Positions 1-51,779 of a stretch of 64,000 nucleotides of DNA are shown here, piece after piece. This DNA is from an uncultured Candidatus Rokubacteria bacterium (GTDB lineage: Bacteria > Methylomirabilota > Methylomirabilia > Rokubacteriales > DASRDR01). A model generated the notes under the pieces. The model did no database searches and had not been told where the DNA came from. It saw only the letters and a program-made list of their open reading frames with translations. Numbering within the stretch: the stretch's first letter is position 1; each line of letters opens with the position of its first letter. The translations under genes were made by a program, and so were the position numbers. The DNA lies in the NCBI GenBank assembly GCA_963805625.1, contig CAWDVE010000010.1, forward strand, positions 1 to 64,000, written 5' to 3'.

Positions 1-1154
1 TCCTGCGTGTACTGCGCATCGTCAAGCACTCCCATCGCTATTCCTGTCGCCTCAAGTTCAGACAGGGTGTTGTCCGCGGCAGAGTAGTGGATAGGCGGGT
101 TGTGGCCGGCATTTACATAGGTAAAGGTATGACTGGTGGAATCCATCAGTCCATAAAAAAGGGTCACAAACATCCCGGATTTCGAGTCGTGTGAGATGAT
201 GGTATTCGCATCCCGGATAGCAGCGGCAGGTTTGCTCGCGTACCATGTGGCATTTACCCGCACAACGATCCGTGAGAGGGCCATGAACAGCGCTGCCGGA
301 ATACCTTTGCCGGATACATCTGCGATCATGATCCCGAGTTTTCCGGCTCCCAGAGGGACCACTTCGAGCGGGATCACGTCAAAGAAATCCCCCCCGACCT
401 CTTTTGCCATGACACTTCTCGCGGCGATGTCGTATCCCTCGATCTGGGTGATGGTATCAGGAAGGAAACTCTTCTGGATCTCCGCAGCAATGGCCAGTTC
501 TGTGTTTTTACGTTCCATCTCGCGAAGCAGGGTGTCCCGCTCTGCCTGCATCTTCCGTTCGTTCTGGAGGTTCTCTACGATGAAGGCAAACACAAACATG
601 CCCGCTGCGTTTGCAAGGATAATGGGGAGGGCCACTGTGGATACAACAATCACGGCCTGGTCGAACGGGCGGCACAGGGCGAGTACCAGAATCATGTGGA
701 AGCCCTCCATGAGGATGGCAAAAAGCACCGCGATGGTTATACCTGCAAACCGCCTCCTGCACGCAAGCCAGATGATTCCCCCGAAGAGTCCGGCAAGGAC
801 GGTTGCCAGTGAGCAGGCATATACGGTGAAGCCCTCAAGGCTCATCCGGTATGCTGCACCGATCAGTCCTGCCCCGATTCCGACGACCGGGCCACCGAGA
901 AGCCCGGCGAGCATCGGCCCGAGATCGCGGACATTGACAATCGCGCCCATGAATTCGATACCGCTGATGGTACCATAGACAGAAAGGGCTCCAAAGACCA
1001 GAATGAGGATGACCTGGGTCTTCACTGCCGGGTGGCCGTCAAGAACCTCGGAAAAGATCCTGCTCCGGGTCAGGAGATAAGCGACCACAATGATCACGGA
1101 GATGAGTTGAATGAGGACCAGCAGATATGACAGGATCGCGAACTCCATGATCAT
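1..1154 (-). CDS. LytS/YhcK-type 5TM membrane sensor fused to SpoIIE/RsbU-family PP2C phosphatase (3' end beyond the window edge)
   Basis: Not in the ORF track; hand-translated from ATG 1154: MIMEFAILSYLLVLIQLISV...NVRDLGPMLAGLLGGP (5TM-LytS motif)...ELAIAAEIQKSFLP...AKEVGGDFFD...IADVSGKGIPAALFM...GMFVTLFY...YVNAGHNPP (PP2C motifs). Confidence 0.92.
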   Translation of the reverse strand, partial: MIMEFAILSYLLVLIQLISVIIVVAYLLTRSRIFSEVLDGHPAVKTQVILILVFGALSVYGTISGIEFMGAIVNVRDLGPMLAGLLGGPVVGIGAGLIGAAYRMSLEGFTVYACSLATVLAGLFGGIIWLACRRRFAGITIAVLFAILMEGFHMILVLALCRPFDQAVIVVSTVALPIILANAAGMFVFAFIVENLQNERKMQAERDTLLREMERKNTELAIAAEIQKSFLPDTITQIEGYDIAARSVMAKEVGGDFFDVIPLEVVPLGAGKLGIMIADVSGKGIPAALFMALSRIVVRVNATWYASKPAAAIRDANTIISHDSKSGMFVTLFYGLMDSTSHTFTYVNAGHNPPIHYSAADNTLSELEATGIAMGVLDDAQYTQ

Positions 1155-1282
1155 ACACTCGTACATAGGAATAGTGCACCACTCGTTCATAAAGGGTCAG
1201 GTTTTTTAACATCCCTTCCTTTGATAACGGATGGATAGGATTATCTTGAGAAAATGCCGACATTAAGTCGCGAGGAAAGAGC

Positions 1283-1615
1283 GTGGATATTAAGGCCGCA
1301 AACCGTGACGGGAACACTATTCTTTCCGTCAATGGCAGAATTGATACATTAACTGCACCGGAACTTGAACAGGCTATCAACACAGAAATTATGCGGGGGA
1401 ACAAGAAGATCCTGCTCGTCTTTTCCGAAGTTTCGTATATCAGCAGCGGTGGCCTCCGGGTGCTGCTGGCTACCGCCAAGAAGCTGAAAAATCCTGGCGA
1501 TAAATTCGGTATATGCAGCCTCCAACCTGAGGTTCTGAAGGTCTTCAGGCTCGCCGGATTCACCACCATCTTCTCTATCTATCCGTCAGAGGGAGAAGCG
1601 CTTGCCACCTGGTGA
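1283..1615 (+). CDS. STAS-domain anti-sigma-factor antagonist (RsbV/SpoIIAA-like)
   Basis: GRIDTLTAPELEQ...VSYISSGGLRVLL with the conserved phospho-acceptor Ser; VFRLAGF C-terminus. Confidence 0.93.
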   Translation: MDIKAANRDGNTILSVNGRIDTLTAPELEQAINTEIMRGNKKILLVFSEVSYISSGGLRVLLATAKKLKNPGDKFGICSLQPEVLKVFRLAGFTTIFSIYPSEGEALATW

Positions 1616-3324
1616 TGGCCAGCCTGACTCTATCCAGTGGCAACCGGTCCCGGGTGCACCAGGAACAGCCTTCTATCCCCTGATCCGGAAGATCGATGCC
1701 ATATCTTCCAATTCCTACCTTATCACGACCCCGGACGTCATTATCCTGATTGACCCCGGTGGATTGCCCGAACAGGCAGCACACCTGTTCCGGGTTATCG
1801 GAATGTGTCAGGCCCGGGACGCCCGACCGCTCTTTATCTTCCTGACGCATGCTCATACGGATCATTTTGTTGGTATTCAGGCGGACCCTGCATTTGCCCA
1901 TCCCGATGCTGTTGTGTTCGCAGTCCAGCAATGCGGGGCATGTGCTCTTGAATCCGGGGATACCACCGTTACGCTATCGGATCTCATGCAGGCACCTTTT
2001 TTTCCGATGAAGGTCGGGCTTCATCTATTCTCTCCGGAACGGGCTGATCTATCTGAAGACATGAGTTTCCCGAATGGAGCCCGGATCACCATTACCCGGG
2101 ACCGGACAGGTCCTGCAGGGCTCCCCCGTGAGCGGATAGAGTTCGGGCCAGGACCTGCTCTCACTATCTATCACACACCGGGTCATAGCCCGGACAGTAT
2201 ATGCCTGCAGATGGGGAGCTTCTTTTTACCGGAGACCTCCTGTTTGCGGCAAGCCCGGGAATAGCCGGCGCGACCGGGTGGTCGCAGGAAACCCTTATTC
2301 ATTCGCTGGGAGCGGTGGAGACGCTCATCACCAAAGAAGGTATACAACTTGTCTGCTCCGGGCACGGTCGGGTAATCCCTGCTGCGGATGCCCTTCGGGT
2401 GCTCTCGGCAGTCAGGGCTGATGCCCGCAGCCTGGCCAACATTGCTGAGATGGAACCTGATCGGGCAGCCCGGACTGCTGCATTTGCGGGGGACTGCATG
2501 GAGCAGGTGAATGAGATCTTCACCATCATGTCAGGACGCCTCCAGTATGTCTCTTTTATCCTGGACGAGCTTGGTGAATCCGGCATAGCAGACCGGTCAT
2601 CCACGCTTATCCGGGGTGATGTGATCGACGAACTGCTGGAAGCCTTCCATAATTTTGCAGAAGAACAACGCAAAGGACTGGATGTCCCGATCCACCGTGT
2701 CCTCAAGGCCGGGCAGGTGATTGCAAAACTCGAACGGACATTTAACCGGGATGAACTCCCGGCCATCATCGACCCGTCCCTTGTCCGCCGGGCCGGTCGG
2801 CTCCTCTCGGATTATACGACGATGCTCCGCGGGTTCACACCACCGAGTGAGTGCTCGGACTGTGATCTCAATACACTGACAGAATCAGTCGTCACCGGGC
2901 TGACTGTCCCACCCTTTACCGATGATGAGGTACTCTCCAGCGCCGATGACGACGCGGCTTTTTACCGTATCCTGCTCGCCCGGATCGGGACTCCGCCATT
3001 GCTTGCGGACGTTGAAGTCACGGTCCTGTCCGAAGCTGACCCTTTGCAGGTCTGTATAGACCGTGAACATTTCACCGATCTGCTTACTTATATTCTCGAG
3101 GACCTTGTCGGGACCGGTGCAGACCGGATCGAGATCAGCACCCGACATACCGGCAGGAACGCCATCGTCACGGTTGCCGGAAATGGACCTTCTTCGGGAA
3201 CAGTTAAGGGAACGCCGTACCTGGCGATTCCTGCAGGGGCTCGCGGAACGTACAGGAGGATCCCTGACATTCCACGAGTCTGGAAGGGAAACATCAGTTC
3301 GAGTTCATCGCTCCGGCCGTTTGA
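1602..3324 (+). CDS. Metallo-beta-lactamase-fold hydrolase fused to a helical region and a degenerate HATPase-like C-terminus (frameshifted)
   Basis: THAHTDH, HTPGHSPDS, LFTGDLLF and SGHG motifs lie across ORFs 1602-2264 and 2201-3559. The C-terminus continues in other frames (RFLQGLAERTGGSLTF...QFEFIAPAV*). Frameshifts near 2215, 3207 and 3290; the end is 3324 or 3359. Confidence 0.75.
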
Positions 3325-3509
3325 AAGATATTTTCTCTACCACGAACCAGGCGGCATAAACAGATTTTTCAGCAGTCTGCCATACTGGTTATTGCCAGTT
3401 TTCCGTCAGGTAAACGAGATAATCAGGATTTGTCGAGGACAATCTTCGATAGGTAAATCTGGGGCAGAGTTCACAAAGAATTACATAAAAATCTGTAGAA
3501 AAAGAAGAT

Positions 3510-4082
3510 TTATTCGAGAACATTTGTCGAGGAGATCATTGCAGGCACTGCTCTCGTGACGGGTACCACAGCCTTGCCCTTGCGGTTTCAACTCAATAGT
3601 TAGGCTGGTACCTCCTGCAACAGTCTTTACCGGGAAAGAAATCTCGACCAGGTCGCCGGGATACAGCGTTGTGACCGTATTGCCACCCCTTGTAGCGGTA
3701 AAAGTGCCTGTTGTACTTCTCGTCCCCCGTGTGAGGGTTACCGGGGCACTGCCCGCAGCGGAAAAGACAATCTCCATCCCGGTCAGGTCAATCGCTGGAT
3801 GCCTGCGTCGGCAGGCTGACAGAAAATGTAATTATGTCAATTCCCCGTAACGGATCAGTTGACAGTCCGTAGACATTTCCTGACAGCTGAACGTTGTCGG
3901 CAGATTGCCCTGGATCTGACGTGGGAGCAGGAGCTGGAGATGTTGTCGCCGGTGGTAATGGAGGTAACAGGGATTGTCCCTTCCGATTCCGTGGGAGTCG
4001 TTGTACAACCCAGAGTCACGAGAAATAACATCAGTATAAGAGAGACACAGACGGTTTTGATGGATAAAGTCGATATGGACAT
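3510..4082 (-). CDS. Putative lipoprotein with an archaellin-like C-terminal domain (frameshifted, or a pseudogene)
   Basis: Signal with lipobox (LMLFLVTLGC), Thr-rich linker, then across frames DNVQLSGNVYGLSTDPLRGIDIITFSVSL...IDLTGMEIVF...LYPGDLVEISF...LTIELKPQG...VVPVTRAVPAMISSTNVLE*, which reads like a Methanomicrobiales archaellin body. Confidence 0.65.
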
Positions 4083-4364
4083 TTTGTTTCACCCTGTTTC
4101 AATAGTTCATTATTTTTCGACCTGTTTAATCATTTTCATAACCTCTCCCGCATAAACGCAGGCAAATCCATGGATACGTGGGAAGTAATGAGGTTGGTCC
4201 CAACGGTGGCTTTTTTTTATCTTCTCACATGCTGCCCCAAAGCCTCCCATGATAAGGACAGCAAAACTATAGCCGGTGTGGGAAAAGTTCAACCGCTGCA
4301 CAAATTCTGCCACGAAATAAGTTCCAGACGGCGACAATGCGAGTGAAATTCCAGAGGCACCTAT

Positions 4365-4699
4365 CGCTAAGCGCATGGGCGGATCGCGGGGACAGGCACT
4401 GTCCCTCCGTAAATAGGTGCTTTACAATGTGTTGAAAACTTAGGGTTCCCCATGAAAATAGAGTAGACAGATGTACATAATGGAATGTTTTTACCTCTTA
4501 ATTATTTGCGATGAACCCCGCCGCCCCCGACGGGGCGCCCCCGCGGCGGATTAGTGTCTGTAAGTATATTTGCAGACACCGCACTGCCCCGCCGTGCCTC
4601 GGAGAGGCCCTGAGGCGGGTTTTCCTCCTGAAATTACATGGTTTAATGATTTTCATGGTTCGGGTGCGAACTCCCGTTCATGCCCGTTTCAGCAGAGCC
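4365..4699 (+). repeat. Modular intergenic repeat (MITE/REP-like), locus 1: module B followed by module A
   Basis: GGGGACAGGCACTGTCCC hairpin; CCGCCGCCCCCGACGGGGCGCCCCCGCGGCGG; CCCGCCGTGCCTCGGAGAGGCCCTGAGGCGGG; ends GTTTCAGCAGAGCC at 4686-4699. Confidence 0.9.
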
Positions 4700-4711
4700 G
4701 GAAAATGTATT

Positions 4712-33529: not shown

Positions 33530-35119
33530 ATGAATCTCAGACAACCAAACGCAAACGAGGCAACCGGAACGGTGAACCGTTCAAGATCTGTAGCTCCGTC
33601 ATCGGGTATCTGTACCCGGTGCCTTGACGGGTGTAAGGGCAGTTGCGAGATCTGGTTATCCACCTTCCGGGGAAGGGAGGTTTTGTACCCGGGCCCATTC
33701 GGTGAGTTGACAGCAGGTGCCGATAAGAACTACCCGATTGATTACTCCCACCTCAGCATACAGGGATACGCAGTTGGTGCACAGGGACTTCCCGAAGGAG
33801 TCGAAGCCAGTCCGGATACAGCGCTCTTTTCGAAGGTAGATACCGAAACTGAGTATGGATGGGACAAGAAAGTCAGGATGCGCCTTCCTATCTTCACCGG
33901 CGCCCTTGGATCAACCGAGATTGCCCGGGTAAACTGGGAGCACTTCGCCATCGGTGCAGCGATCTCCGGTATCACGATTGTCTGCGGTGAAAATGTCTGC
34001 GGTATTGATCCTGGACTGAAACGAGATGCAAAAGGAAAGGTAATCGAGTCTCCCGAGATGGATCGCCGCATCAACATCTATAAAAAATTCTATGATGGCT
34101 ATGGTGAGATGCTTGTCCAGATGAATGTCGAAGATACCCGGCTTGGAACTGCAGAATATGTGGCAAGCAAGCACAATCTTGATACCATCGAACTCAAGTG
34201 GGGTCAGGGAGCCAAGTGTATCGGTGGCGAGATCAAGGTCAAGTCTCTTGAACGGGCAATCGAGCTTAAGAAAAGAGGTTACATCGTACTACCGGACCCG
34301 ACCCTGCATGAAAACCAGGAAGCCTACAAGGCAGGAGCCATCAAGGAGTTTGAACGGCACTCCCGGCTTGGTTTTGTTACCAAAGAGGGATTTCTGGAAG
34401 AGGTGGATCGTCTCCGTGATATCGGGTTTAAACGGGTAACTCTGAAAACCGGAGCGTACTCCATGGTCGAACTCGCCATGGCAATCCGCTACAGTGCTGA
34501 AGCCAAAATTGATCTCCTCACCATTGATGGAGCAGGTGGCGGGACCGGTATGAGCCCGTGGCCGATGATGAACGAGTGGGGTATTCCCACGTTCTACCTG
34601 CAGTCGCTTGCGTACGAATTTGCCTGCAAACTGGACAAAAAAGGCTACCGTGTGCCGGATCTGGCGATGGCTGGCGGAATCTCCGACGAACCGGGGGCGT
34701 TTAAAGCACTCGCAATGGGAAGCCCCTATTTCAAGGCAGTCTGCATGGGCAGAGGACTCATGATCCCCGGTATGGTGGGCAAGAATATTGAGAAATGGAT
34801 CAAGGAAGGTGACCTTCCCAAGTCTGTCTCCAAGTACGGCAATACCATCGAAGAAATATTCGTCTGCTACGAGGAACTTAAAGAGAAATTTGGTCCCCGT
34901 ATCAAGGAGATCCCGATGGGTGCAGTCGGTATCTATACCTATTCACAGAAATTCAAAACCGGTCTCCAGCAGATTATGGCAGGGAGCAGGAATTTCCGTC
35001 TCTCGACAATGTCACGGGATGACCTGATGGCACTCACTCCGGAGGCTGCAGAAGTATCAGGTATCGATTACGTCATGAGTGCCAGGTATGATGAAGCCAT
35101 GGGCGCTCTGCTCGACTAA
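33530..35119 (+). CDS. FMN-binding glutamate synthase family protein (stand-alone GltB2-like paralog)
   Basis: CTRCLDGCKGSC, IELKWGQGAKCIGGE, IDGAGGGTGM, AMAGG. Confidence 0.9.
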   Translation: MNLRQPNANEATGTVNRSRSVAPSSGICTRCLDGCKGSCEIWLSTFRGREVLYPGPFGELTAGADKNYPIDYSHLSIQGYAVGAQGLPEGVEASPDTALFSKVDTETEYGWDKKVRMRLPIFTGALGSTEIARVNWEHFAIGAAISGITIVCGENVCGIDPGLKRDAKGKVIESPEMDRRINIYKKFYDGYGEMLVQMNVEDTRLGTAEYVASKHNLDTIELKWGQGAKCIGGEIKVKSLERAIELKKRGYIVLPDPTLHENQEAYKAGAIKEFERHSRLGFVTKEGFLEEVDRLRDIGFKRVTLKTGAYSMVELAMAIRYSAEAKIDLLTIDGAGGGTGMSPWPMMNEWGIPTFYLQSLAYEFACKLDKKGYRVPDLAMAGGISDEPGAFKALAMGSPYFKAVCMGRGLMIPGMVGKNIEKWIKEGDLPKSVSKYGNTIEEIFVCYEELKEKFGPRIKEIPMGAVGIYTYSQKFKTGLQQIMAGSRNFRLSTMSRDDLMALTPEAAEVSGIDYVMSARYDEAMGALLD

Positions 35120-35377
35120 CTATAACGTCGGGATAACATCTGCAACAGGGAGATCCCCAAACAATTTTTTTTAAAAAAATCAGGATAACAGAACCTGTTT
35201 ATCCGGTCGTTGACAAATGGATGAGAGCTGGTCTCCCGTTTGTTTTGTGTTGTCATCGATGATTAATAACCGTTTTTTCGAGAAAAATTGTAGAGGGAGA
35301 CAATAAAATGCACGATCGGATATCTTTTCACGGATATGGATACTCGTGGCATTTCAGAACATGCTCCCGTGTAAGCA

Positions 35378-36526
35378 CTATCTTCCTTTCTGCCCGACTA
35401 TGGTAAATGACTCCAGAATCTGATGGGTAATCTGCGTCCCGAGAGTCGGCTGGATGACTTCGAGCCAGAGAAAAAAACCTACCTTCGGCGGTGTCGGGCG
35501 TTCAAATTTGAAATGACCGTCTTTTGCCTGGATCATCTTATGGTACTCCTTCTTCTGTCGCGAACGAAGGTAGATGATCAGTTCATAGCCGGGAAGATCG
35601 GTTGCTATGACTGCCTTTGAATAATATTTTGAAAAATCTTCAAATTCGATTTTCTTACTTTTCACCGACAATCCATAGGTGTCACACAGCAATTTGACAG
35701 ACTGCGGAAACAATCCGCCATAGAGTACCTTTTTGACGATCTGGCCTGTCTGGGTTGTGATTTCGGGATGTTTTCTTCCCCCTCCCTTTGATACATCAGC
35801 GAAAATCCGGGTGCGTACTTCGTCATGATAGCGCTTGTAATCAAACGGGTTTTTCATCGGGAACGTGGTTGCTGAAACCAGCTTGGGATGATTTTCCGGG
35901 TTGTTATAGATGATCCTTGGACGATAATGCTTCAGGACTGATTTGATCTCCTCACAGGAAGTAGTGTGGATAATCGCATTGGTCTTATCTTTGGCAAGCC
36001 GTTTAACCACCGAATAGTTGGACAGGTCAAAGGATGAAATAAGGAGAAAGGGGGTGATATTCTGACCGTAAAGATACCCGAGAAGACGCTTCTTGAATGC
36101 GATCTCTTCTTCAAATTCTTTGAGATCGGAAGGGGATGTCACTACCTCAGCAAATGCTACGTGGTTATCTGCATCAACCAGAAGCATATCGAATTCCGCG
36201 AGATCCTGCCCATTACCCCGAATGGTAATATCTCCGTATTTTGAATAGAAAAGGCCGTTCTGGCCGAGTTTTACATCCTCTCGTTTTCTTGGGGCATCGG
36301 CACCTTTCCGTGCAAGATATTTTATCCGGTCCGATTTTCTTGAAATATCGAGAAACATCTCGTACACGATTGCTTCAAACCACCGTCCTTCAGCAGTCCG
36401 CATCGGTTCAATATCCGGAGAGAATAGTTTTTTTCGCTCGATCTTGTTCATGTGCCGCGTGGCATTAAGCGCGATGGCTGCATTTGGTTTAAAACTTTTA
36501 AAATTGAGAGAGAGCCACGGAATCAT
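35378..36526 (-). CDS. Hypothetical protein with a possible PD-(D/E)XK-like domain
   Basis: GRWFEAIVYE...AEFDMLLVD...AFAEVVTS; start at 36526 or 36451. Confidence 0.72.
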   Translation of the reverse strand: MIPWLSLNFKSFKPNAAIALNATRHMNKIERKKLFSPDIEPMRTAEGRWFEAIVYEMFLDISRKSDRIKYLARKGADAPRKREDVKLGQNGLFYSKYGDITIRGNGQDLAEFDMLLVDADNHVAFAEVVTSPSDLKEFEEEIAFKKRLLGYLYGQNITPFLLISSFDLSNYSVVKRLAKDKTNAIIHTTSCEEIKSVLKHYRPRIIYNNPENHPKLVSATTFPMKNPFDYKRYHDEVRTRIFADVSKGGGRKHPEITTQTGQIVKKVLYGGLFPQSVKLLCDTYGLSVKSKKIEFEDFSKYYSKAVIATDLPGYELIIYLRSRQKKEYHKMIQAKDGHFKFERPTPPKVGFFLWLEVIQPTLGTQITHQILESFTIVGQKGR

Positions 36527-36685
36527 GATACACAGTATAGATCTTCTGTCATGATTGTAAATAACAATCTGTTTTCGTCTTAATAGATAGTTATATATAG
36601 CATAGAAAGATATTGCCTTCGTACCCTGAGTATGTGTAAAAACACATGACAAGGGGGAGAAGGAAATCGAGGGGGGTCTTGAAAA

Positions 36686-37039
36686 ATGCCAAAAGTCAAG
36701 AAAATAACCGGCATGGCTCCGTTGCCGCAATATATAATGCCGGATGCTTCGGAACCTGAATACGAGCTTATCCTGGAACAGCTGCAGGACTATCGCCAGT
36801 CGTTGATCGGCGCCTCATATTATTATATCAAAGCCGGGGATGATCGCTGTTGCCTGTGCCGAATCGTTCACGGCGGGGGCAAGGTCTTTTTCCACGAGCT
36901 GGTGGATCACAGCAGGCATGGCATCAGTGATGATGACATTGAAGAGTCCGTCCGGCTGGATACCGGTTCTTTTTCCTTACCGGGGTATTACCCAATCTCG
37001 CCGCATGTTGAACAAAAGCTGCGTATTTTATACGATTAA
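36686..37039 (+). CDS. Hypothetical protein
   Basis: 117-aa ORF with GAGGGGG RBS and an upstream TTATATA box. Confidence 0.65.
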   Translation: MPKVKKITGMAPLPQYIMPDASEPEYELILEQLQDYRQSLIGASYYYIKAGDDRCCLCRIVHGGGKVFFHELVDHSRHGISDDDIEESVRLDTGSFSLPGYYPISPHVEQKLRILYD

Positions 37040-37103
37040 TCCATTTTTCAGGATTACAAAGCAGATCCGGACTGATGAGAATATATAAGAGGGGAGTGAC
37101 TGG

Positions 37104-37628
37104 ATGGTGCTGACAGGCAACCAGAATGACGGACCCGTGACAAAAGCGGCAAAGGAATCTCTTGAGACCGGTAATGCCAGTCGTATCCTGATCTGGATCC
37201 CGGAAGAATCGGAAAATACCCTGAAAAATCTATTGGAAAGAGCCTGCTGCGCACGCTCTACCCGGCAGGATGGGTGTAATCGTACTGCTGAATGGTATTT
37301 TGAGACCGTCAACCGCCTCCATGCTGCGAGTCACGGATTGAATAATCTGAGCATTTCTACAAAAACACCGGAAGAAAAAGCGATAATCCTGCTGGTGGAA
37401 GGAGCATGTGAGAGTGGCAATTTTGAGGATATTGCCACACGTATACCAGACACTCCTGCCGGAGAATTGCGACAACGTTTCGAAGACCTTATGAAAAAGA
37501 GAAATAGTTATTGTGAGGAAAATTGTGTTGCTGGTCGCATGTACGTTTCAGCGTTTGTTGATTTCATCACTTTTGTGAATAACCTTCATTCAGGATCTTC
37601 TGAGAATCAGGTAAATCAGCGGCATTGA
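37104..37628 (+). CDS. DUF6448-like protein
   Basis: DGPVTKAAKESLETGN...WYFETVNRLH...AGRMYVSAFVDF; GGAGTGA RBS. Confidence 0.7.
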   Translation: MVLTGNQNDGPVTKAAKESLETGNASRILIWIPEESENTLKNLLERACCARSTRQDGCNRTAEWYFETVNRLHAASHGLNNLSISTKTPEEKAIILLVEGACESGNFEDIATRIPDTPAGELRQRFEDLMKKRNSYCEENCVAGRMYVSAFVDFITFVNNLHSGSSENQVNQRH

Positions 37629-37657
37629 AAAAATTATTCGGTTGATTTTCCTGAAAA

Positions 37658-39204
<1,547 letters not shown>

Positions 39205-39402
39205 TATACACCTGCTTTTTTTAGATCTGCATTGGGAACTGTGATGCATTTGACCTTTTGGATCCGAAATGCCATTTCATGTGTGGTTTTCCAATCCGGT
39301 CACCTGTGCACCGCTAACCGATCCCGATGCCGGATGAAAAGTCCGGGAAATCAGCATCAGATATCGCGGTCCAGGTAGCGTAATCATTTTGTTTTGTTGG
39401 AA

Positions 39403-39430
39403 GGAAGTTGTATTCCTATATTTATAAATT
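39403..39430 (-). promoter_or_regulatory. NrpR-type operator GGAA-N6-TTCC next to the TATA box of amtB-glnK
   Basis: GGAA-GTTGTA-TTCC at 39403-39416; minus-strand TTTATAAATA immediately upstream. Confidence 0.85.
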
Positions 39431-39473
39431 TAACTACAGAATCGAAAAAAAATTTCAAAAAAACAAATACTGT

Positions 39474-40670
39474 TCAGGCACGCTCACCATGCTGACAGAT
39501 ATCGAGGCCGACATACTCTTCATCTTCAGTGACCCTCATCCCCAGGGTTCGATCGATAACAAATGCAATGCAATAGGTCATCACAAAAGCAAATATGAGT
39601 GCTGCAACTGCGCATACGGTATTTACTGCAAACTGCCAGGCATTGCCTTCAACCAGTCCGGAAATTCCGCCAATTGCTGCCGCCGCAAAAATGCCGGTAG
39701 CAACGGTACCCCAGAGACCACCCATTCCGTGAATTGCCCAGGCATCCAGACTTTCGTCACATTTTTTCCTGACCCGCACGAGCATCATTCCATAACAGAG
39801 AACACCCGCGACACCCCCGATAAGAAGGGAAACCAGCGGGGTGACAAACCCGGCAGCCGGAGTTATTGCCACCATGCCGGCAATGGCGCCGCTTACCATA
39901 CCCAGTGAACTGGGTTTGCCATGATACCAGCCCGCAAACATCCATGCCAGAGCACCGGCAGCGGCTGCCGTGTTTGTTGTGACGAATGCGTTGACAGCAA
40001 CACTGTTTACTGCAAGAGCACTTCCCGCATTAAAACCGAACCAGCCAAACCATAACAGGGCAGCGCCGAGAAGAGCCATGGGGATATTATGGGGTTCCAG
40101 TGCATATTCCCCGAATCCTGCCCGGTTTTTTATCACCAGAGCAAGAGCAAGAGCACCAAAACCTGAACAGATCTCGACCACGGTCCCCCCGGCAAAATCA
40201 ATGAGTCCCAGCTTCGATGCCCATCCGCCACCCCATGCCCAGTGTGCAAGCGGACAATAGACAAGAGTGAGCCATACGAGAACAAATACAATAAATGAGG
40301 AGAACTTGATGCGTTCGGCAACTGCCGATGTCACGATGGTTACCGTAACTGCAGCAAAAAAGAGCTGGAACACCATAAAGACAAGGGGGGGATAGGCTCC
40401 CGATCCTGCATCTGCACTGACCCCGTTAAGCCCTACAAAATCGAGGTTACCGATAACTCCCCCGATATCCTGACCAAAGGCAAGAGAATACCCGATCAGG
40501 ATCCAGTGCACACTTACAAGTGCAAGGACAACAAACGAGAGGGCAATCATCGAAATGAAATTCTTCTTCCTTACCAATCCGCCATAAAAAAACCCGACAC
40601 CAGGGGTCATCAGCATCACCAGGATTGCAGAGACCATAAGCCAGGTCGTAACACCGGTATCCAAAGCCAT
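39474..40670 (-). CDS. amtB: Second ammonium transporter
   Basis: [33 protein letters not shown]; the first pore His is replaced by Glu. Confidence 0.95.
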
Positions 40671-40887
40671 TATTTTCACCGTTGACAGCTTTTTATGTAC
40701 TGGCGTCACTCCGGAAGTTGGACCAGTCCGCTACCCGTCTGGAAGTACCTGAAGGTCCACGGACCCGGGTATCGTTTTGGTATACCTTACGGTCATCCAA
40801 CCTTTTAACTGTGCCAGAATGATCGACAGTATGTTTACCGGATTACAAGTCCGTACATTGCCGATACATTAATGTAAAAAATTTTGA

Positions 40888-42214
40888 TCAGTATGTTGCA
40901 AGATACCTGTCAAGTTCCCAGGGATGGACTGCAAGCCGGAAGGAATCGGTTTCCATCTGGGCAATACTTGAAAGATTCGTTACAACATGTTCACCGAGCG
41001 TCTTACAGAGCACTTCATCCTTGACGAGCATTGCATTGGATTCCATAAGGCTGCCCGGCAGCATATCGATATGGAGTCGCTTCCGGGCTTTCTCATCGAG
41101 ATGATAGATATTGGTATTCGTGCTTTCAGGTGGCATAACCTTGTTCCTGATACCATCCAGTCCGGCTGCAAGCATACAGGCAAAGGTAAGATACGGGTTG
41201 CACATCGGGTCCGGGCTGCGGAACTCTGCCCGGGTGCTGTTACCCCTTGCTGCCGGAACGCGAACCAGCGCGGAACGGTTGGCTGCACTCCAGGAGATGT
41301 AACAGGGGGCTTCATAACCGGGGACAAGGCGCTTGTAGGAGTTGATTGTCGGGTTTGCAACACGGGTAATCGCCTTTGCGTGTTTCAGGATACCGCCGAT
41401 ATAGTACATTGCGGTATCGGAGAGTCTGGTTTTCTCCATTGGGATCAAAGAATGCATTCTTCCCGTTTCTGGCCAGCGATCCATGGGTGTGCATACCGCT
41501 GCCATTGATGCCTGCAATCGGCTTTGCCATAAAGCTCGCGTGCAAACCGTACTGCAGCGCGATTGACTTGGTTGCAAATTTGAAGGTAATAACCCGATCT
41601 GCAGTAATGAGTGCATCACCATATTTAAAGTCAATTTCATGCTGGCTGTCAGCGACTTCATGATGGGATGCTTCTATCTCGAATCCCATATCACTGAGTG
41701 CAAGGACAACATCGCGTCGGACATCCTCTGCAGAATCGGTAGGGGCGAGATCAAAATACCCCCCGCGATCTTCAAATTCTGTTGTCGGAACTCCCTCATA
41801 CATTTTAAAGAGGAAAAACTCGAGTTCAGGACCGGTATTAAACGTGAATCCCATCTTTGCTGCTTCAGCAATGGTTTTTCGCAGGATATAACGAGGATCT
41901 CCGTCAAACGGTTTGTTTCCATAGGTCTGGACGTCACAAATAAACCGGGCAACCTTCCCCTCCTGGGGTCTCCAGGGAAGGACCGCATACGTTGACGGGT
42001 CTGGTTTGAGCATCATGTCGGATTCTTCAATGCGGGCAAATCCTTCTATGGATGAGCCATCAAACCAGATACCCTCAGTAAGGGCTTTTTCTGCCTGAAT
42101 AACCGGAATCGAGACGTTTTTCGGCTGACCCTGGATGTCAGTAAACTGAAGTCGGATAAATTTTACCTTGTCCGCTTCAATTTTTTTGAGGAGTTTTGTT
42201 ACATCTGCTGACAT
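40888..42214 (-). CDS. glnA: Glutamine synthetase type I (frameshift near 41425)
   Basis: [35 protein letters not shown], then [20 protein letters not shown]. Confidence 0.96.
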
Positions 42215-42217
42215 ATT

Positions 42218-42305
42218 GGAAGACATGTTCCACCCATTTGTATTTATACTTATTCAACCAATCTGATTGAACGAATGTTCGCTAGTGCAATGAACATATG
42301 TTCAT
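42218..42305. promoter_or_regulatory. glnA/gltB1 divergent promoter with NrpR-type operators
   Basis: GGAA-GACATG-TTCC at 42218-42231, minus-strand TATAAATA at 42241-42248, TGAA-CGAATG-TTCG at 42268-42281, palindrome ATGAACATATGTTCAT at 42290-42305. Confidence 0.82.
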
Positions 42306-42335
42306 CAGTACAACATCATTCTGTATTGTGATAAT

Positions 42336-43388
42336 ATGTGTGGTATTATAGGTGTCCTGGATAAGCGCCGCGAGAGCGTGGATGGTGCAAAAATCAAAGA
42401 GGCACTCTCCATGATGAACGAGCGGGGGAGTGGTGAAGGAGCCGGTTACGTAGCGTATGGGATCTATCCTGAATACAAGGATTATTTTGCGCTGCATGTT
42501 TTTTTTGACAATATCCGTGAAAACAAGGCTGCACTCGATACGCTCCTGGAGAAATGGGGTACCATCGTCCATGATGAACAGATCAAAACGTACGAACAGC
42601 CCAATATCCGGAAAGTCCATACCCCGTGGCGTTATTTCTTCCGTCCTGACAGGAGCCTGATGCCCAAAAGTACCACGCCCGATGAAGATATTGTCACCCA
42701 CCTTGTCATGAAAATCAACGCTGAAAAGAACGGGGCCCTCATCTTCTCATCCGGTAAAAATCTGGGGGTATTCAAGGCTGCAGGCTGGCCCGAGGATGTT
42801 GCCGATTTCTACCGGATCCAGGATTACCAGGGATACCTCTGGCTGGCGCATAACCGGTACCCGACCAATACTCCCGGCTGGTGGGGAGGAGCGCACCCGT
42901 TCAATCTCCTGAACTGGAGCGTCGTTCACAACGGGGAGATCACCTCGTATGGTACAAACCGTCGTTACATTGAAAGTTACGGGTATAAGTGCACCATGTT
43001 TACTGACACCGAAGTGGTAGCCTACCTCGTGGACCTTCTTATCCGTAAACACGGTCTCTCGGAAAAAATGGCAGTCCGGGCACTTGCCCCCCCGTTCTGG
43101 GAAGATATCGACCGGATGCCGGCAAAAGAACAGGAACTCAATCGTGCGATCCGGCTGGCCTATGGATCCGCACTCATGAATGGACCGTTTGCCATCTGCG
43201 TTGCCAATGAAAACACCCTTGTGGGATTTACCGACAGGATCAAACTGCGTCCACTCGTAACCGGTGAACTTGGCGACCGGCTCTATATTTCCAGCGAGGA
43301 AGCAGCAATCCGCAGGATGGAACCGGATGTTGATAATATCGCCATGCCAAAAGCCGGCGAACCGGTTATCGGGAGGGTCATCGCATGA
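42336..43388 (+). CDS. Glutamate synthase, class II glutamine amidotransferase subunit (GltB1)
   Basis: MCGIIG, ERG, HNRYPT, AHPF, VHNGEI, TDTE. Confidence 0.93.
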   Translation: MCGIIGVLDKRRESVDGAKIKEALSMMNERGSGEGAGYVAYGIYPEYKDYFALHVFFDNIRENKAALDTLLEKWGTIVHDEQIKTYEQPNIRKVHTPWRYFFRPDRSLMPKSTTPDEDIVTHLVMKINAEKNGALIFSSGKNLGVFKAAGWPEDVADFYRIQDYQGYLWLAHNRYPTNTPGWWGGAHPFNLLNWSVVHNGEITSYGTNRRYIESYGYKCTMFTDTEVVAYLVDLLIRKHGLSEKMAVRALAPPFWEDIDRMPAKEQELNRAIRLAYGSALMNGPFAICVANENTLVGFTDRIKLRPLVTGELGDRLYISSEEAAIRRMEPDVDNIAMPKAGEPVIGRVIA

Positions 43389-44896
43389 CCATAGGGAGTA
43401 TCCCTCTCAGGTTCAAAGTGGAGATCGATCCTGACCAGTGCATGCTCTGCGGACGCTGCGTTGAAAACTGTTCATATGGCGTGTTTCGTAAAGAGGGGGA
43501 CGCTATTCGTGTGAACTCCCGGAACTGTGTTGCATGTCATCGCTGTTCGGCCTTCTGCCCCAGAGATGCGATAAGCATCTACGAGAAACCCACGGATTAC
43601 CGGAGTCATCCGGTATGGACCCGTGAAATCCGTGAGGCTGTCTTCAACCAGGCAAAGACCGGGAAGATCATCCTTGCCGGGATGGGAAATGCACTCCCCT
43701 ACCCTATTATTTTCGACCGCCTCGTGCTCGATGCCTGCCAGGTCACCAACCCAAGTATTGACCCGCTCCGGGAACCGATGGAATTGCGAACGTATCTTGG
43801 CAAAAAACCCTCGTCCCTTTCCCTTAAAGAGTCAGCGGATGGCACTGTTGAACTGATAACAAAACTCTCGCCAAATCTCCAGATAGAGACACCGATCATG
43901 GTCGGGCATATGAGTTATGGTGCCATCAGCCTGAATGCACAGACTGCGATTGCCAAAGCAGTCAGCCGGATCGGCACCTTCATGGGAACCGGGGAAGGCG
44001 GGCTTCACGAATCGCTCTACCCTTACCAGAGTAATATGATAGTTCAGGTGGCCAGCGGACGGTTTGGGGTAGACATCAATTATCTCGAACGCGGTGCGGC
44101 GATAGAGATCAAAATAGGGCAGGGTGCAAAGCCGGGAATAGGAGGGCACCTGCCCGGTGAAAAAGTCTGCGCCGATGTATCCTGCACGCGGATGATCCCG
44201 GAAGGGAGTGACGCCATAAGCCCCGCTCCCCATCATGATATCTATAGTATTGAGGATCTCAAGCAGCTCGTGCGCAGCCTGAAAGAAGCTACCGAATGGA
44301 AGAAACCGGTCTTTGTGAAGATTGCGGCAGTTCACAACACTGCTGCAATTGCCGCGGGTATCGCCCGCTCATCGGCAGATGCAGTAGTGATTGATGGCTT
44401 CCGTGGCGGTACGGGTGCGGCTCCAAGGGTATTCCGGGATCATGTTGGTATACCCGTAGAAGCAGCAGTGGCAAGCGTTGATGCAAAACTCCGGCAGCAG
44501 GGAATAAGAAACCAGGTCTCAATTATCGCAAGTGGCGGGATCCGTGAAAGTGCGGATGTGGCAAAGATCATCTGCCTTGGGGCTGATGCTGTGTATATCG
44601 GTACTTCCGCCCTCGTTGCCATGGGATGCCGTGTCTGCGGTACCTGCTACCGGGGGCAGTGTGCATGGGGCATCGCCACGCAGAAACCGGAACTTACAAA
44701 GAGGCTGGATCCTGACGTAGAGTCTGTGCATGTCGAGAACCTGATCCATGGCTGGACACTTGAACTTGCCGAACTGATGGGGGCTGCCGGCATCAACAGC
44801 ATCGAGAGCCTGAGGGGAAACCGCGACCGGCTGCGTGGCTATATGCTTGACGAGGGGCTTCTGAACGTGCTTGATGTGAAGACCGTGGGGGCATGA
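43385..44896 (+). CDS. Glutamate synthase, ferredoxin + FMN subunit (GltB2)
   Basis: Two CxxCxxCxxxC motifs, MSYGAIS, GTGEGG, QVASGRFG, IKIGQGAKPGIGGHLP, 3Fe-4S Cys. Confidence 0.94.
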   Translation: MTIGSIPLRFKVEIDPDQCMLCGRCVENCSYGVFRKEGDAIRVNSRNCVACHRCSAFCPRDAISIYEKPTDYRSHPVWTREIREAVFNQAKTGKIILAGMGNALPYPIIFDRLVLDACQVTNPSIDPLREPMELRTYLGKKPSSLSLKESADGTVELITKLSPNLQIETPIMVGHMSYGAISLNAQTAIAKAVSRIGTFMGTGEGGLHESLYPYQSNMIVQVASGRFGVDINYLERGAAIEIKIGQGAKPGIGGHLPGEKVCADVSCTRMIPEGSDAISPAPHHDIYSIEDLKQLVRSLKEATEWKKPVFVKIAAVHNTAAIAAGIARSSADAVVIDGFRGGTGAAPRVFRDHVGIPVEAAVASVDAKLRQQGIRNQVSIIASGGIRESADVAKIICLGADAVYIGTSALVAMGCRVCGTCYRGQCAWGIATQKPELTKRLDPDVESVHVENLIHGWTLELAELMGAAGINSIESLRGNRDRLRGYMLDEGLLNVLDVKTVGA

Positions 44897-45642
44897 GCAT
44901 GAAAACAGTCCGTATTGATGCCAAAGATCTTCATTACACCCCCCTCAACCAGAAGATCCGGGCTGCTGTAGCTGATGGTGTAAAAGAGATCGTCATCGAC
45001 CATGTCCTTGGCCAGCGGTTTATTGCAGATGGATTGCGTGGCGATGATGTGACCATCACGGTTAATGGTGTGCCCGGTGGGGACCTTGCCATGTTTATGA
45101 GCGGCCCCACGATTATTGTTCATGGAAATGCTGACCACGCACCGGGTAACACCATGGACAAGGGAAAGGTCGTCATACACGGAAGCGCCGGTGATGCAGT
45201 CGCCCACAGCATGCGGGGTGGCAGGGTGTACGTACGCGACAACATCGGTTACCGTGGTGGTATCCATATGAAGCGGTACCGGGAGAAGCACCCTATTCTT
45301 GTAGTCGGCGGCAGTGCCCGCGCTTTCCTCGGCGAATCGATGGCAGGCGGAATCATCATTGTCCTCGGGCTCAAAGGTGTCCCTCCGGTTTCAGAACAGG
45401 GTGTGGGCAGCGGGATTCATGGGGGAGAGATCTTTGTCCGTGGCACAATTGACGATCTCTGTCTCGGAGGCGGAGCCAGACAGGCGCCGGTCACAGAAGA
45501 GCAGAAAGCTGTGATCCGCCCGATTATTGAGGATTTCGCCAAATCGTTCGGCATTGATGCAGCACCCCTGCTTGCATCGGATTACACGCGGATCGCTGCG
45601 ACAAGCGCCAGGCCGTTTGCAAACAAGTATACGTGGGAATGA
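44893..45642 (+). CDS. Glutamate synthase, GXGXG beta-helix subunit (GltB3)
   Basis: GVPGGDLAMFMSG, GYRGGIHM, GESMAGG repeats. Confidence 0.9.
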   Translation: MSMKTVRIDAKDLHYTPLNQKIRAAVADGVKEIVIDHVLGQRFIADGLRGDDVTITVNGVPGGDLAMFMSGPTIIVHGNADHAPGNTMDKGKVVIHGSAGDAVAHSMRGGRVYVRDNIGYRGGIHMKRYREKHPILVVGGSARAFLGESMAGGIIIVLGLKGVPPVSEQGVGSGIHGGEIFVRGTIDDLCLGGGARQAPVTEEQKAVIRPIIEDFAKSFGIDAAPLLASDYTRIAATSARPFANKYTWE

Positions 45643-46670
45643 TGGTAATGGCAGAAAAAAGTTATCTCGATTTAAAACGTGAGATCTGGGATACGGGCAG
45701 GTGTTCGGGGTGCGGTGCATGTGTTGCAGTCTGCCCTGCAGATGCACTTACCTTTGACGAGGGGGAAATGGTGGTATCCCCCAAAAGTACCGGGTACTGC
45801 AAACAGGCAACAGATGGTGTAACCTGCGGGGCATGTTATGACTCCTGTCCCCGTACTGGTAACCAGCCTTCAGAAACCCTCGGGGAGTACCTGGAACTCT
45901 TCGCCGCAAAAGCAACGTTTGATGTTCCGCACCGCCAGAGTGGCGGGGCAGTCACGTCGATCCTCGCCAATGCGCTGGATGAGGGATTGATCGATGCTGT
46001 TGTCACGGTAAACGAGGATCGCTGGACGCTCAGGCCGTCATCTGTTGTAATTACGAAATCCGACGTGCTTCTGCAGCAGGCAGGCAGCAGGTACAGCTGG
46101 TGGGTACCTCTCCTGGCGGCATTGAAAAACGCCGTAGTAGAACGTAAGTTTAAGCGCATCGCTGTCGTCGGTGTTCCCTGTGCAGTACAGGCAGTCTCCC
46201 GTATACGGGCAAGTGAAAATGATCTGCTCAAACCCTACGCAAAGGCAATCCGGCTCACCATCGGCCTTTTCTGCACGGAAACATTTGACTATACCCTGCT
46301 TATCCAGGGAAAACTCCGCAGCCACTATATGCTCGAACCCCACGAGATCAGGAAACTCGATGTCAAGGGAAAACTTGAAGTCTTAAAACAGGATGGAAGC
46401 ACAACCATCGTTCCTCTTGCAGAACTGGAAACCTGTATACGAAAAGGCTGCCGTTACTGCACTGATCTGACGGCTGTACGTTCAGATATATCAGCAGGCG
46501 CAATCGGAAGTCCTGCCGGTTCAACTACGTTAATCATCCGCACCAGTACGGGAAAAGGTTTCGTTGACAGCGCCGTAAGAAACCGGAAACTTGAGGTCAG
46601 CCCGGATGTTGATACAACAGCCATCGAGAAACTGGCGGCAGCAAAAATAAAGAAAAATTCCAAAAAATAA
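45639..46670 (+). CDS. FrhB/FdhB-family F420-binding Fe-S protein
   Basis: CSGCGACVAVCP, CGACYDSCP, QSGGAVT, GVPC, IGLFCTE, CRYCTD, DISAG. Confidence 0.9.
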   Translation: MMVMAEKSYLDLKREIWDTGRCSGCGACVAVCPADALTFDEGEMVVSPKSTGYCKQATDGVTCGACYDSCPRTGNQPSETLGEYLELFAAKATFDVPHRQSGGAVTSILANALDEGLIDAVVTVNEDRWTLRPSSVVITKSDVLLQQAGSRYSWWVPLLAALKNAVVERKFKRIAVVGVPCAVQAVSRIRASENDLLKPYAKAIRLTIGLFCTETFDYTLLIQGKLRSHYMLEPHEIRKLDVKGKLEVLKQDGSTTIVPLAELETCIRKGCRYCTDLTAVRSDISAGAIGSPAGSTTLIIRTSTGKGFVDSAVRNRKLEVSPDVDTTAIEKLAAAKIKKNSKK

Positions 46671-49594: not shown

Positions 49595-51779
49595 ATGGCG
49601 CGGCGGGAGACAAAACAACTGACATTTGACGGAATTACCGTACCTGTCCTCCCCTTCGTCCGTACATCTGACGGGCATATCATCGAATGGAACCGCGATC
49701 GTATTGTCCGCCAGATTGTTCAGGAAACAAAGCTGGTCGAGACCTTCTATGGCTATGAAGGGGCAGACGAATTGACCGCCCAGGATATTGCCCTGGAGGT
49801 TGAAAACCGCATCAAGAACATGGGTCTGAAATCACTTTCCGGTCCACTCATCCGTGAGATTGTCAACATCACACTGCTTGAGAGGGGTATGATACAGTAC
49901 CGCAATGTTTCTACCCGTGTCGGTACTCCGGTTTATGATGCACACCAGATTGATGTCGGGAGGGGATTCGAAGCACACGACAACGCAAACCTCCAGGAAA
50001 ATGCCGAGACTTCCCATAAGAAGAAAGCAGACAAGATCTCAAAGGAACAATATCTGCTCCAGCTCCCACCCGACCTTGCCGATCATCACCTGTCCGGCGA
50101 GATGCACATCCATGATCTCGAGTATTTTGGTACGCGCCCGTTCTGCCAGGACTGGGACCTGCGCTATTTCTTCTATTATGGCCTGATGCCTGACGGCAAT
50201 GGTACAAAGGCTTCGGTGGCTGGTCCTGCGAAGCGTCCGGAGGTTGCAATTCTCCATGCGGTAAAAGCACTCGGATCCGCCCAGACTAATTTTGCCGGTG
50301 GGCAGGGTTATTACAATTTCCTCACCTTCCTGGCGCCTTATATGGAGGGGATGGGGTATAACGAGATCAAACAGAACATGCAGATGTTTGTCTATGAAAT
50401 GACACAGATGATGGTAGCCCGGGGAGGTCAGCTTGTCTTCTCATCCATCCAGCTCTCACCGGGTGTACCGACTCTCTGGCAGGACAAGCCATGCATTTTT
50501 AAAGGAAAGATCTGGGACGGCAAATCAGCTCCTCTTCGCACGTATGGGGAGTTCGAGCGTGAGGTGCGATTGCTCTTCAAAGCCCTCATGGAAGTAATGC
50601 TTGAAGGAGATTACTGGGGCAAACCCTTCAACTTCCCAAAGCCCGAGATCTCTATCGAACCGGATTTCATGAATGAACGCGAAGAGTTCAACGCGAAAAA
50701 CCCTGATCTTCCAACATTCCAGGAATTATACCTGATGACCTTCGAACTCGCTTCGAAGTTCGGAACACCCTATTACGATAACCAGCTTCCCGCGTACCGC
50801 GGAGCAGGTAAAGGGATTTCCTGTTACCAGTGCTGTGCGTATCAGTTTTCCACGGTGGCAGACAAGGATTCGGATTTTGATAAGAAGATGTATTTTGAGG
50901 ATGGCAGGCACTTCTCGATGGGATCCTGGCAGGTTGTTTCCGTAAACTGCCCCCGTGCGGCATATAATGCAGAAGGAGATGATACCCGTCTTTTTGCCGA
51001 ACTCAAGGCGCTCATGGATGTCGCGGTGGATATTTTCAAGATCAAACGCCGATGGATGGACCTTATCCGGGCCAACAGCCGGATGCCATTTGCCATGCAG
51101 CGCCCCAAGGACCCGAACACCGGTGAACGTGGCGCACTTGCTGTCGATCTTGAAGGACTGGTATATACGATTGGGGTCGTCGGTGTCAATGAGATGGTGC
51201 AGCACCACACCGGTAAGCAGACTCCACGAATCAAAAGAAGCATTCAGGCTTGCCATACGTGCGATGACAGAGATGGAGTTGTATGGTCGCGAACTCTCCG
51301 CAAAGAATAACATGACCATTGCCCTTGCCCGCACGCCGGCAGAGACGACCGGGCAAAGGTTTGCGGTTGCCGATCTGCTCGATCGCCGGTATCACGATTA
51401 TGCAGTAAACGTGATCAAAGGAGACATCGAAGAAGGCCTGGAAATGCTGGGCAAGAGCCGTGATCTCCCCATATACTATACGAATGGCACCCATGTGGCA
51501 CCGGGGGCAAATGTCCCGCTCACCAAACGTATGGAAATCGAGCATGTATTCTTCCCCATTGTTGACGGGGGGAACATCTTCCATATCTGGCTGGGTGAGG
51601 CACGTCCGGATCCACGTGGACTCATGGACATGGCGATGAAGCTCTGCCGCAATACCCAGATAGGATATTTTGCTTTTACCCGGGATATTACGGTCTCGCT
51701 CCGCCAGTTCCACGAGATGCGTTCGTCAAAGAAATCCATTACCCCTTATATCCCCTCAGATTTTCCTGTCAAGGTATAA
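49595..51779 (+). CDS. nrdD: Class III anaerobic ribonucleoside-triphosphate reductase lacking the C-terminal glycyl-radical domain (frameshift near 51221)
   Basis: ATP cone, HIHDLEYF.TRPFC, RGGQ, FNFPKP, QCCAY finger loop, TPAETT..RFA..D, YTNGTH, GGNIFHIW, YFAFT. Confidence 0.93.

Follow-up and report, generated by a model that had tools for sequence, protein, structure and literature searches.

In the RsbU-RsbV-RsbW switch of Bacillus, the kinase RsbW phosphorylates a serine residue of a STAS protein and a PP2C phosphatase strips the phosphate. Here we analyze a locus at the left end of a 64,000-nt stretch of DNA (bases 1-64,000 of contig C10, hereafter the window) that encodes an RsbU-like PP2C phosphatase, a STAS protein and a fusion of a metallo-beta-lactamase (MBL) hydrolase domain to a dead histidine-kinase-like module (hereafter the fusion). 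The locus and its relatives resemble RsbU-RsbV-RsbW and SpoIIE-SpoIIAA-SpoIIAB in having a PP2C phosphatase, a STAS protein with a conserved serine and a GHKL serine kinase with intact motifs. They differ from the Bacillus switches in that the fusion-bearing methanogens have no sigma-70 and in that the hydrolase/dead-kinase fusion travels with STAS. The locus is likely to be a complete partner-switching module with an enzyme, not a sigma factor, as its output.

Passages of Anderson et al. 2009 (PMC2686161) describe a SpoIIAA/AB/E-like trio in Methanomicrobiales, the same trio in the same archaeal order as here, and state that its targets could not be determined. A supplement of that paper contains a COG1235 beta-lactamase signature cluster, which was not matched to the fusion family. 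A precedent for enzyme control comes from Anabaena, where sections of Harada et al. 2026 (PMC13555669) report that a partner-switch-like module, HenR-Alr3423-All4160, controls a STAS-fused glycosyltransferase and not a sigma factor. Unlike All4160 as described there, STAS is mostly a separate protein in the present system, and the enzyme carries a dead DHp-CA-like module. Sections of a review (PMC8256260) cover the non-canonical STAS outputs SypA, RbaV and HmpV, whose targets it states to be unknown; STAS itself is the output signal in these cases, as it would be here, but for the methanogens a candidate target can be named from genomic context. No description of this fusion was found in the literature searched, a scope outside which subscription journals and preprint supplements fell, and a word search for lactamase and STAS in the main text and 4 supplements of PMC5847659 gave no match.

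The window begins with a minus-strand gene for a 5TM-LytS membrane sensor joined to a PP2C/SpoIIE phosphatase (3..1166; PF07694, PF07228). Its open reading frame (ORF), 3-1190, matches 5TM-5TMR_LYT (E 2e-45) and SpoIIE (E 2e-27) in Pfam and is cut by the contig end, with the last ~78 residues beyond it. In the closest relative, locus L001 (92% nucleotide identity across window 1-4184), the phosphatase is complete at 466 aa and 97% identical to the window copy over residues 1-388. Its metal motifs GGDFFD, IADVSGKG, LYTDG and SDDIT are intact, the last two being visible in L001 only, as the window copy is truncated. Next to it, on the plus strand, lies the gene for a stand-alone, RsbV/SpoIIAA-like STAS protein of 110 aa (1283..1615; PF01740, E 1e-19) that scores 76 bits against TIGR00377, above the cut-off of 53. 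Conservation predicts Ser55 (codon 1445..1447, plus strand), which we take to be the equivalent of SpoIIAA Ser58, as the phospho-acceptor: it is invariant in 61/61 fusion-linked STAS proteins, and a serine occupies this position in 99 of the 103 STAS matches in metagenome loci. An earlier interpretation made from the letters alone (the sequence-only reading) had proposed a 5TM-LytS/PP2C gene divergent from a STAS gene that keeps its phosphoserine in a YISSGGL motif, and Pfam, TIGR00377 and the motif agree on this.

The fusion gene (1602..3324, plus strand) starts with TTG at 1602 and stops with TGA at 3324. Since STAS ends at 1615, the two genes share the 14 bp noted previously, and the estimate of roughly 570 aa for the product fits intact relatives of 573 aa at 95% identity. 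Relative to L001, the window copy has three single-base indels, at ~2216, 3203 and 3278, which spread the ORF over several frames. In contigs of close relatives from four public runs, the phase is intact at the three sites in 3/4, 3/4 and 1/4 cases, respectively. The indels are probably sequencing errors. We rejected a true pseudogene as the leading reading because one of the indels falls in a G run, which it shortens, and because the phase is preserved in close relatives and a neighboring gene is likewise split; that neighbor, lipoprotein-like (window 3513-4082), lies in four pieces relative to L001. Analyses of the fusion beyond the window used intact relatives. Among the methanogen genomes surveyed, G191 (L168, L265, L266) has a fusion missing ~270 internal residues, an RsbW without its N-terminus, one PP2C gene with a stop and a STAS-fused protein spread over three frames, possibly through decay of the whole system or assembly error.

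The sequence-only reading had placed the fusion in the position of RsbW, and this placement did not hold. In L001 the complete PP2C gene is followed directly by a gene for a 142-aa HATPase_c_2 (PF13581) protein, RsbW. An RsbW gene is also found upstream, in divergent orientation, in all 14 archaeal loci among L001-L019 for which upstream DNA is available (three more have none), and its ATP motifs (E46, N50, D80 and GGLG) are invariant in 23/23 aligned copies. Within the methanogen block of C10, whose left edge is the contig end, there was no RsbW-like match. We surveyed 251 genomes sampled evenly from Methanomicrobiales, the order to which L001 belongs. RsbW was found in 140 of these, including 103 of the 104 that bear the fusion. 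Thus, with a real RsbW present in relatives, the fusion is a fourth component and not a stand-in for the kinase. Sigma70_r2 was detected in 3/251 genomes, and a profile search found it in 0/104 fusion-bearing ones, with the search control positive in 10/14 genomes; the absence of sigma-70 from these methanogens was therefore correctly called. RsbW-like domains also occur inside frames of ~600-1040 codons in fusion-free genomes (G096, G106, G140, G035, G152, G059, G071, G148, G116 and others), a different switch layout.

We characterized the fusion through a structural model of a relative, P0004, with a mean predicted local distance difference test score (pLDDT) of 82.7. The N-terminal part is an MBL-fold domain with a full two-metal site (1632..2440, plus strand; PF00753; Z 18-20 to solved MBL folds), and residues 5-280 of P0004 match MBL folds with Z up to 19.6. 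By alignment, the metal ligands are H83, H85, D87 and H88 (1848-1865), H195 (2184-2186), D212 (2234-2236) and H255 (2363-2365). The intact metal motifs reported earlier are thus all there, and the seven ligands (HxHxDH, H, D, H) are invariant in 150/150 aligned sequences; this alignment leaves out 18 close relatives and includes the 72 of 80 metagenome hits that were long enough to enter. The nearest solved relatives, by both sequence and fold, are the YcbL/GloC-like small hydrolases (7ev5, 7l0b, 2zwr, 2xf4), which have the same metal ligands. The fusion differs from these in that the pocket motif IGRTDL is replaced by PGIAGL, in its insertions and in an added 295-aa kinase-like tail. With a YcbL/GloC-like domain whose pocket motif is changed, the substrate is, judging from sequence, most likely a small molecule. 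Nothing in the domain is specific to a phosphodiesterase, nuclease or lactonase, and no curated MBL family reaches its cut-off for the fusion. Membership in glyoxalase II GloB or YcbL-GloC was rejected (TIGR03413, 29 bits vs 201; GRTD motif replaced), as were a class B beta-lactamase (core model 34 bits vs 100; all subclasses far below cut-off) and the ODP di-iron sensor (PF19583, 12-13 bits vs 27.2). With the full fusion model as query, the matches listed by Foldseek are MBL folds alone. In two bacterial loci, L184 and L194, PP2C, STAS and the fusion lie downstream of an NCS2 nucleobase permease gene (by NCBIfam in L184, by eye in L194), which may hint at the substrate.

The C-terminal half appears closer to the DHp-CA core of a histidine kinase than to RsbW. 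Where DHp would lie, a stretch of helices lacking a conserved histidine (2456..2827, plus strand) was delimited by secondary structure, partial structural alignment and conservation; it keeps R313, E326, D343, F349, K369, Q372 and R397. It is followed by a degenerate CA (GHKL) domain (2846..3321, plus strand; fold and profile alignment). Residues 281-573 of P0004 align loosely to DHp-CA cores (HK853 5uht, Z 16.9, root-mean-square deviation (RMSD) 5.0 over 204), and residues 416-573 match the CA domain of ThkA (3a0t) with Z 17.5 and an RMSD of 2.1 over 128 residues. The best 50 fold matches of the C-terminus list histidine-kinase cores, and a SpoIIAB-type or other fold outside that list is possible. 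A HATPase-like shape without the N-box Asn and the G-boxes had been described for this part; structure now supports the CA fold and profile alignment the loss of the motifs. The N-box reads YILEDL (3089-3106, plus strand), aligned to NLLSNA, and the G1 box reads AGNG (3176-3187, plus strand), in which Gly replaces the Asp. Both the ATP lid and the G2 box are deleted, leaving a 21-residue gap in the profile alignment to 25 native kinases (probability 94%). No His outside the metal site reaches 85% conservation in the 150 sequences. Sensor histidine kinases such as ThkA and HK853 thus resemble the fusion in their CA fold and in the helices placed where DHp lies, but the fusion has no conserved H-box His, no Asn in the N-box, no Asp in the G1 box and neither an ATP lid nor a G2 box; we rejected an active kinase. 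The fusions of L001, L012 and L016 gave no HATPase_c_2 profile match, and the EAxxN motif is absent. Each of the residues R313, E326, D343, K369, Q372, R397, R461, D493 and E500 is shared by 133 or more of the 150 sequences. In the ESM Atlas, the fusion matched nameless clusters and one HATPase_c cluster at 0.93, a lead only. A 1158-aa variant (L169:8394-11870, G212; one relative found) has the dead-kinase module without the MBL domain: ~420 aa of membrane helices that look transporter-like by eye and match nothing in Pfam are followed by two 5TM-LytS domains and then the module; it lies 5.9 kb from STAS and RsbW.

The fusion family occurs in 104 of the 251 genomes, a count that includes one variant without the MBL domain and one internally deleted copy. 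STAS was found in 139 genomes, among them all 104 with the fusion, and none of the 112 STAS-negative genomes has the fusion. By hand tally, STAS is within 10 kb of the fusion in 88/104 genomes, with 7 not judged (contig edges or rows beyond the listing), and is adjacent or fused to it in 59/104. We estimate chance linkage at ~2-3%, given ~three STAS genes per 2.4-Mb genome. The layout varies between branches: STAS may be upstream, downstream, divergent, convergent, 3-7 kb upstream or fused. In three genomes of one clade (L114 in G241, L115 in G010, L116 in G179), the MBL domain, the module and STAS are in one frame of 694-696 codons, and this clade is nested among genomes with STAS just downstream of the fusion. 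The triple-fusion clade and its sisters have a dedicated STAS beside the fusion, whereas the PP2C/RsbW operon is elsewhere (C51 vs C36 in G179). Members of a high-GC clade, among them L171:3076-8700 (G090), have STAS and the fusion on the same strand at a spacing of 3-7 kb; a DASS transporter gene and a gene for an AMP-binding enzyme occupy the interval, and a ferredoxin-thioredoxin reductase-like gene lies downstream.

The linkage extends to bacteria. A metagenome scan for the fusion recovered 80 loci, 72 of them with STAS. In a clade ~31-34% identical, and bacterial by its neighbors (e.g., glutathione synthase and RsmE in L194), STAS lies within 200 nt in 34/34 loci, many of which are near-identical, often together with PP2C and RsbW. 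In Mesorhizobium (L016), STAS, RsbW and two PP2C genes are beside the fusion; among 401 sampled genomes of the Mesorhizobium order, it was found in the seed genome only. A conserved STAS-fusion linkage, anticipated by the sequence-only reading, is thus supported by co-occurrence in 104/104 genomes, proximity in most of these and the bacterial clade.

This locus looks like a non-canonical partner switch rather than one that controls a sigma factor, and the fusion can be called neither kinase nor RsbW. Because there is no sigma-70, the signal must exit via STAS or RsbW. Some functional coupling of the fusion to STAS is very probable. In the mechanism that we propose, the separate RsbW and the membrane PP2C would set the phosphorylation state of Ser55, STAS would contact the dead histidine-kinase-like half of the fusion, and this docking would switch the MBL hydrolase domain. 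The analogy with SypA and All4160 suggests, at a guess, that STAS is active when unphosphorylated. We place docking on the fusion because the fusion tracks STAS through rearrangements, across domains of life and into one polypeptide. We place it on the module because the kinase half, though it has lost catalysis, retains a set of conserved charged residues and is found again, without an MBL domain, close to STAS and RsbW. The prediction as a whole, in which docking on the module gates the metallo-hydrolase, strikes us as about evenly poised on present sequence evidence. In favor of this mechanism, we count the invariance of the metal site (150/150) while the kinase residues were lost, and the joint damage to the fusion, RsbW, PP2C and the second STAS fusion in G191.

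Several points weigh against this mechanism. In a bacterial clade that includes Geobacter L012, no STAS is nearby in 8/8 loci, several of which have short flanks, and two loci of this clade (L012, L257) adjoin hybrid histidine kinases; the Geobacter L012 genome has STAS and PP2C genes elsewhere. For 9/104 genomes, reading 5-9 kb to either side of the fusion turned up no STAS. Since 35 of the 139 STAS-positive genomes have no fusion, the fusion is not the sole target of the switch. The three fused ORFs represent one event, and the counts overstate independence because the genomes and metagenome loci are related. Finally, synteny is silent on direction, and both the MBL domain, in the N-terminal position of a kinase's sensor, and the module, placed after the 5TM-LytS sensor in the 1158-aa variant, fit a role as input.

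A broader form of the proposal concerns the targets of the switch more generally. Fusion-bearing genomes have one RsbW and several STAS genes. A 435-aa protein (L003:5791-7101 and relatives; outside the window), present in many of the same loci, consists of an N-terminal STAS domain and a 320-aa domain with no Pfam or PDB sequence match. The low-confidence model of the 320-aa domain (pLDDT 41.7) has acetolactate decarboxylase and PPC folds among its best 8 matches (best Z 6.0, RMSD 5.1 over 149), which makes this protein a second candidate enzyme output on the strength of modeling. One RsbW with several STAS proteins per genome, one of them fused to an acetolactate decarboxylase-like domain, suggests a hub with several enzyme outputs. 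Tentatively, and with rather less confidence than a balanced judgment would carry, the dead DHp-CA-like module may be a portable STAS-reading domain for its fusion partners in archaea and bacteria, whether an MBL hydrolase or a membrane transporter-like/5TM sensor protein, and one RsbW may drive several STAS-effector pairs with no sigma/anti-sigma layer.

The alternative that survives best, although we think it unlikely, gives the fusion the role of an input: its MBL domain would bind or turn over a metabolite, metal or oxygen species, the module would sequester STAS or tune RsbW/PP2C, and the output would lie elsewhere. This accounts for the same synteny and for the domain order of sensor followed by DHp-CA, seen again where the module follows the 5TM-LytS domains of the 1158-aa variant. 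An MBL-like iron/oxygen sensor, ODP, exists (described in part of PMC6978683), and Pfam places ODP among the beta-lactamase families. However, the ODP match of the fusion is far below cut-off (13 bits vs 27), and its complete hydrolase-type HxHxDH/H/D/H site is invariant. The loci already supply sensor-bearing PP2Cs as inputs. Each genome has a single RsbW and several STAS genes, and a STAS that is dedicated or fused fits an arrangement of one STAS per effector.

It is improbable that the fusion is merely co-transcribed or co-regulated with the switch, with RsbW or STAS acting on another target such as the STAS-fused acetolactate decarboxylase-like protein or a transcription factor. The 435-aa protein in many of the same loci, the 35 STAS-positive genomes without a fusion and the nine genomes without close linkage would all be expected, whereas the single-ORF fusion with STAS, the retention of STAS next to the fusion in archaea and bacteria despite many rearrangements, and the 0/112 STAS-negative genomes with the fusion argue for a closer tie.

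Quite improbable, too, is that the fusion acts on STAS enzymatically, as an MBL-type phosphatase recruited via the module, or that it belongs with two-component systems as a pseudo-histidine kinase. A phosphate-binding role is conceivable for K30, R313, K369 and R397, which are basic and conserved, but PP2C phosphatases were already found in 5/5 genomes checked, and the nearest MBL relatives are small-molecule hydrolases. Similarly, L012 and L257 adjoin hybrid kinases, but no phosphotransfer His is conserved. Replacement of RsbW by the fusion, the strict form of the earlier proposal, is barely credible: no RsbW is visible in the window, but the window starts at a contig end, an intact RsbW follows PP2C in L001 and occurs in all but one of the fusion-bearing genomes, and the fusion has no HATPase_c_2 match.

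The window lies in a 7.27-Mb assembly of ~70% GC with a contamination figure of 6.26%. C10:1-143 kb is ~50% GC and Methanoregula-like, with an abrupt step to 70% GC bacterial DNA at ~143.3 kb, and among named relatives the best match is a Methanoregula contig, which runs collinear with the window across several genes. All 13 sigma-70 matches of the assembly are outside this 143-kb block. The block is methanogen DNA in a bacterial bin, probably on a chimeric contig. We rejected its transfer into a bacterium in favor of misassembly, which fits better because 143 kb of methanogen housekeeping genes and an abrupt GC step occur at a contig end. The source had been called an archaeon, which is right for the DNA of the block and wrong for the assembly. 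An Rfam search found one tRNA in the window. By eye, window 33530-46670 holds a nitrogen-assimilation cluster with two ammonium transporters, glutamine synthetase and glutamate synthase subunits. The glutamine synthetase and anaerobic ribonucleotide reductase genes (window 40888-42226 and 49595-51779) appear by eye as overlapping frames; like the split lipoprotein-like gene, they are consistent with indel errors. A dispersed repeat of up to ~260 bp (window 4441-4700; further copies at ~10507, 19345, 24091, 33079, 46922, 51999, 55672 and 63016) gave 28 blast hits including itself, all within the methanogen block, and is MITE- or REP-like, with short internal inverted repeats.

These results name a soluble four-protein set, the PP2C domain, RsbW, STAS and the fusion, that can be rebuilt in vitro. 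The question raised in 2009, in the passages of PMC2686161 on the targets of anti-sigma-like proteins in Methanomicrobiales, thereby becomes a four-protein test. If the proposed mechanism is true, the dead-kinase module would be defined as a STAS partner, and methanogens that are widespread in wetlands and digesters would have turned a bacterial sigma-control circuit to the control of an enzyme.

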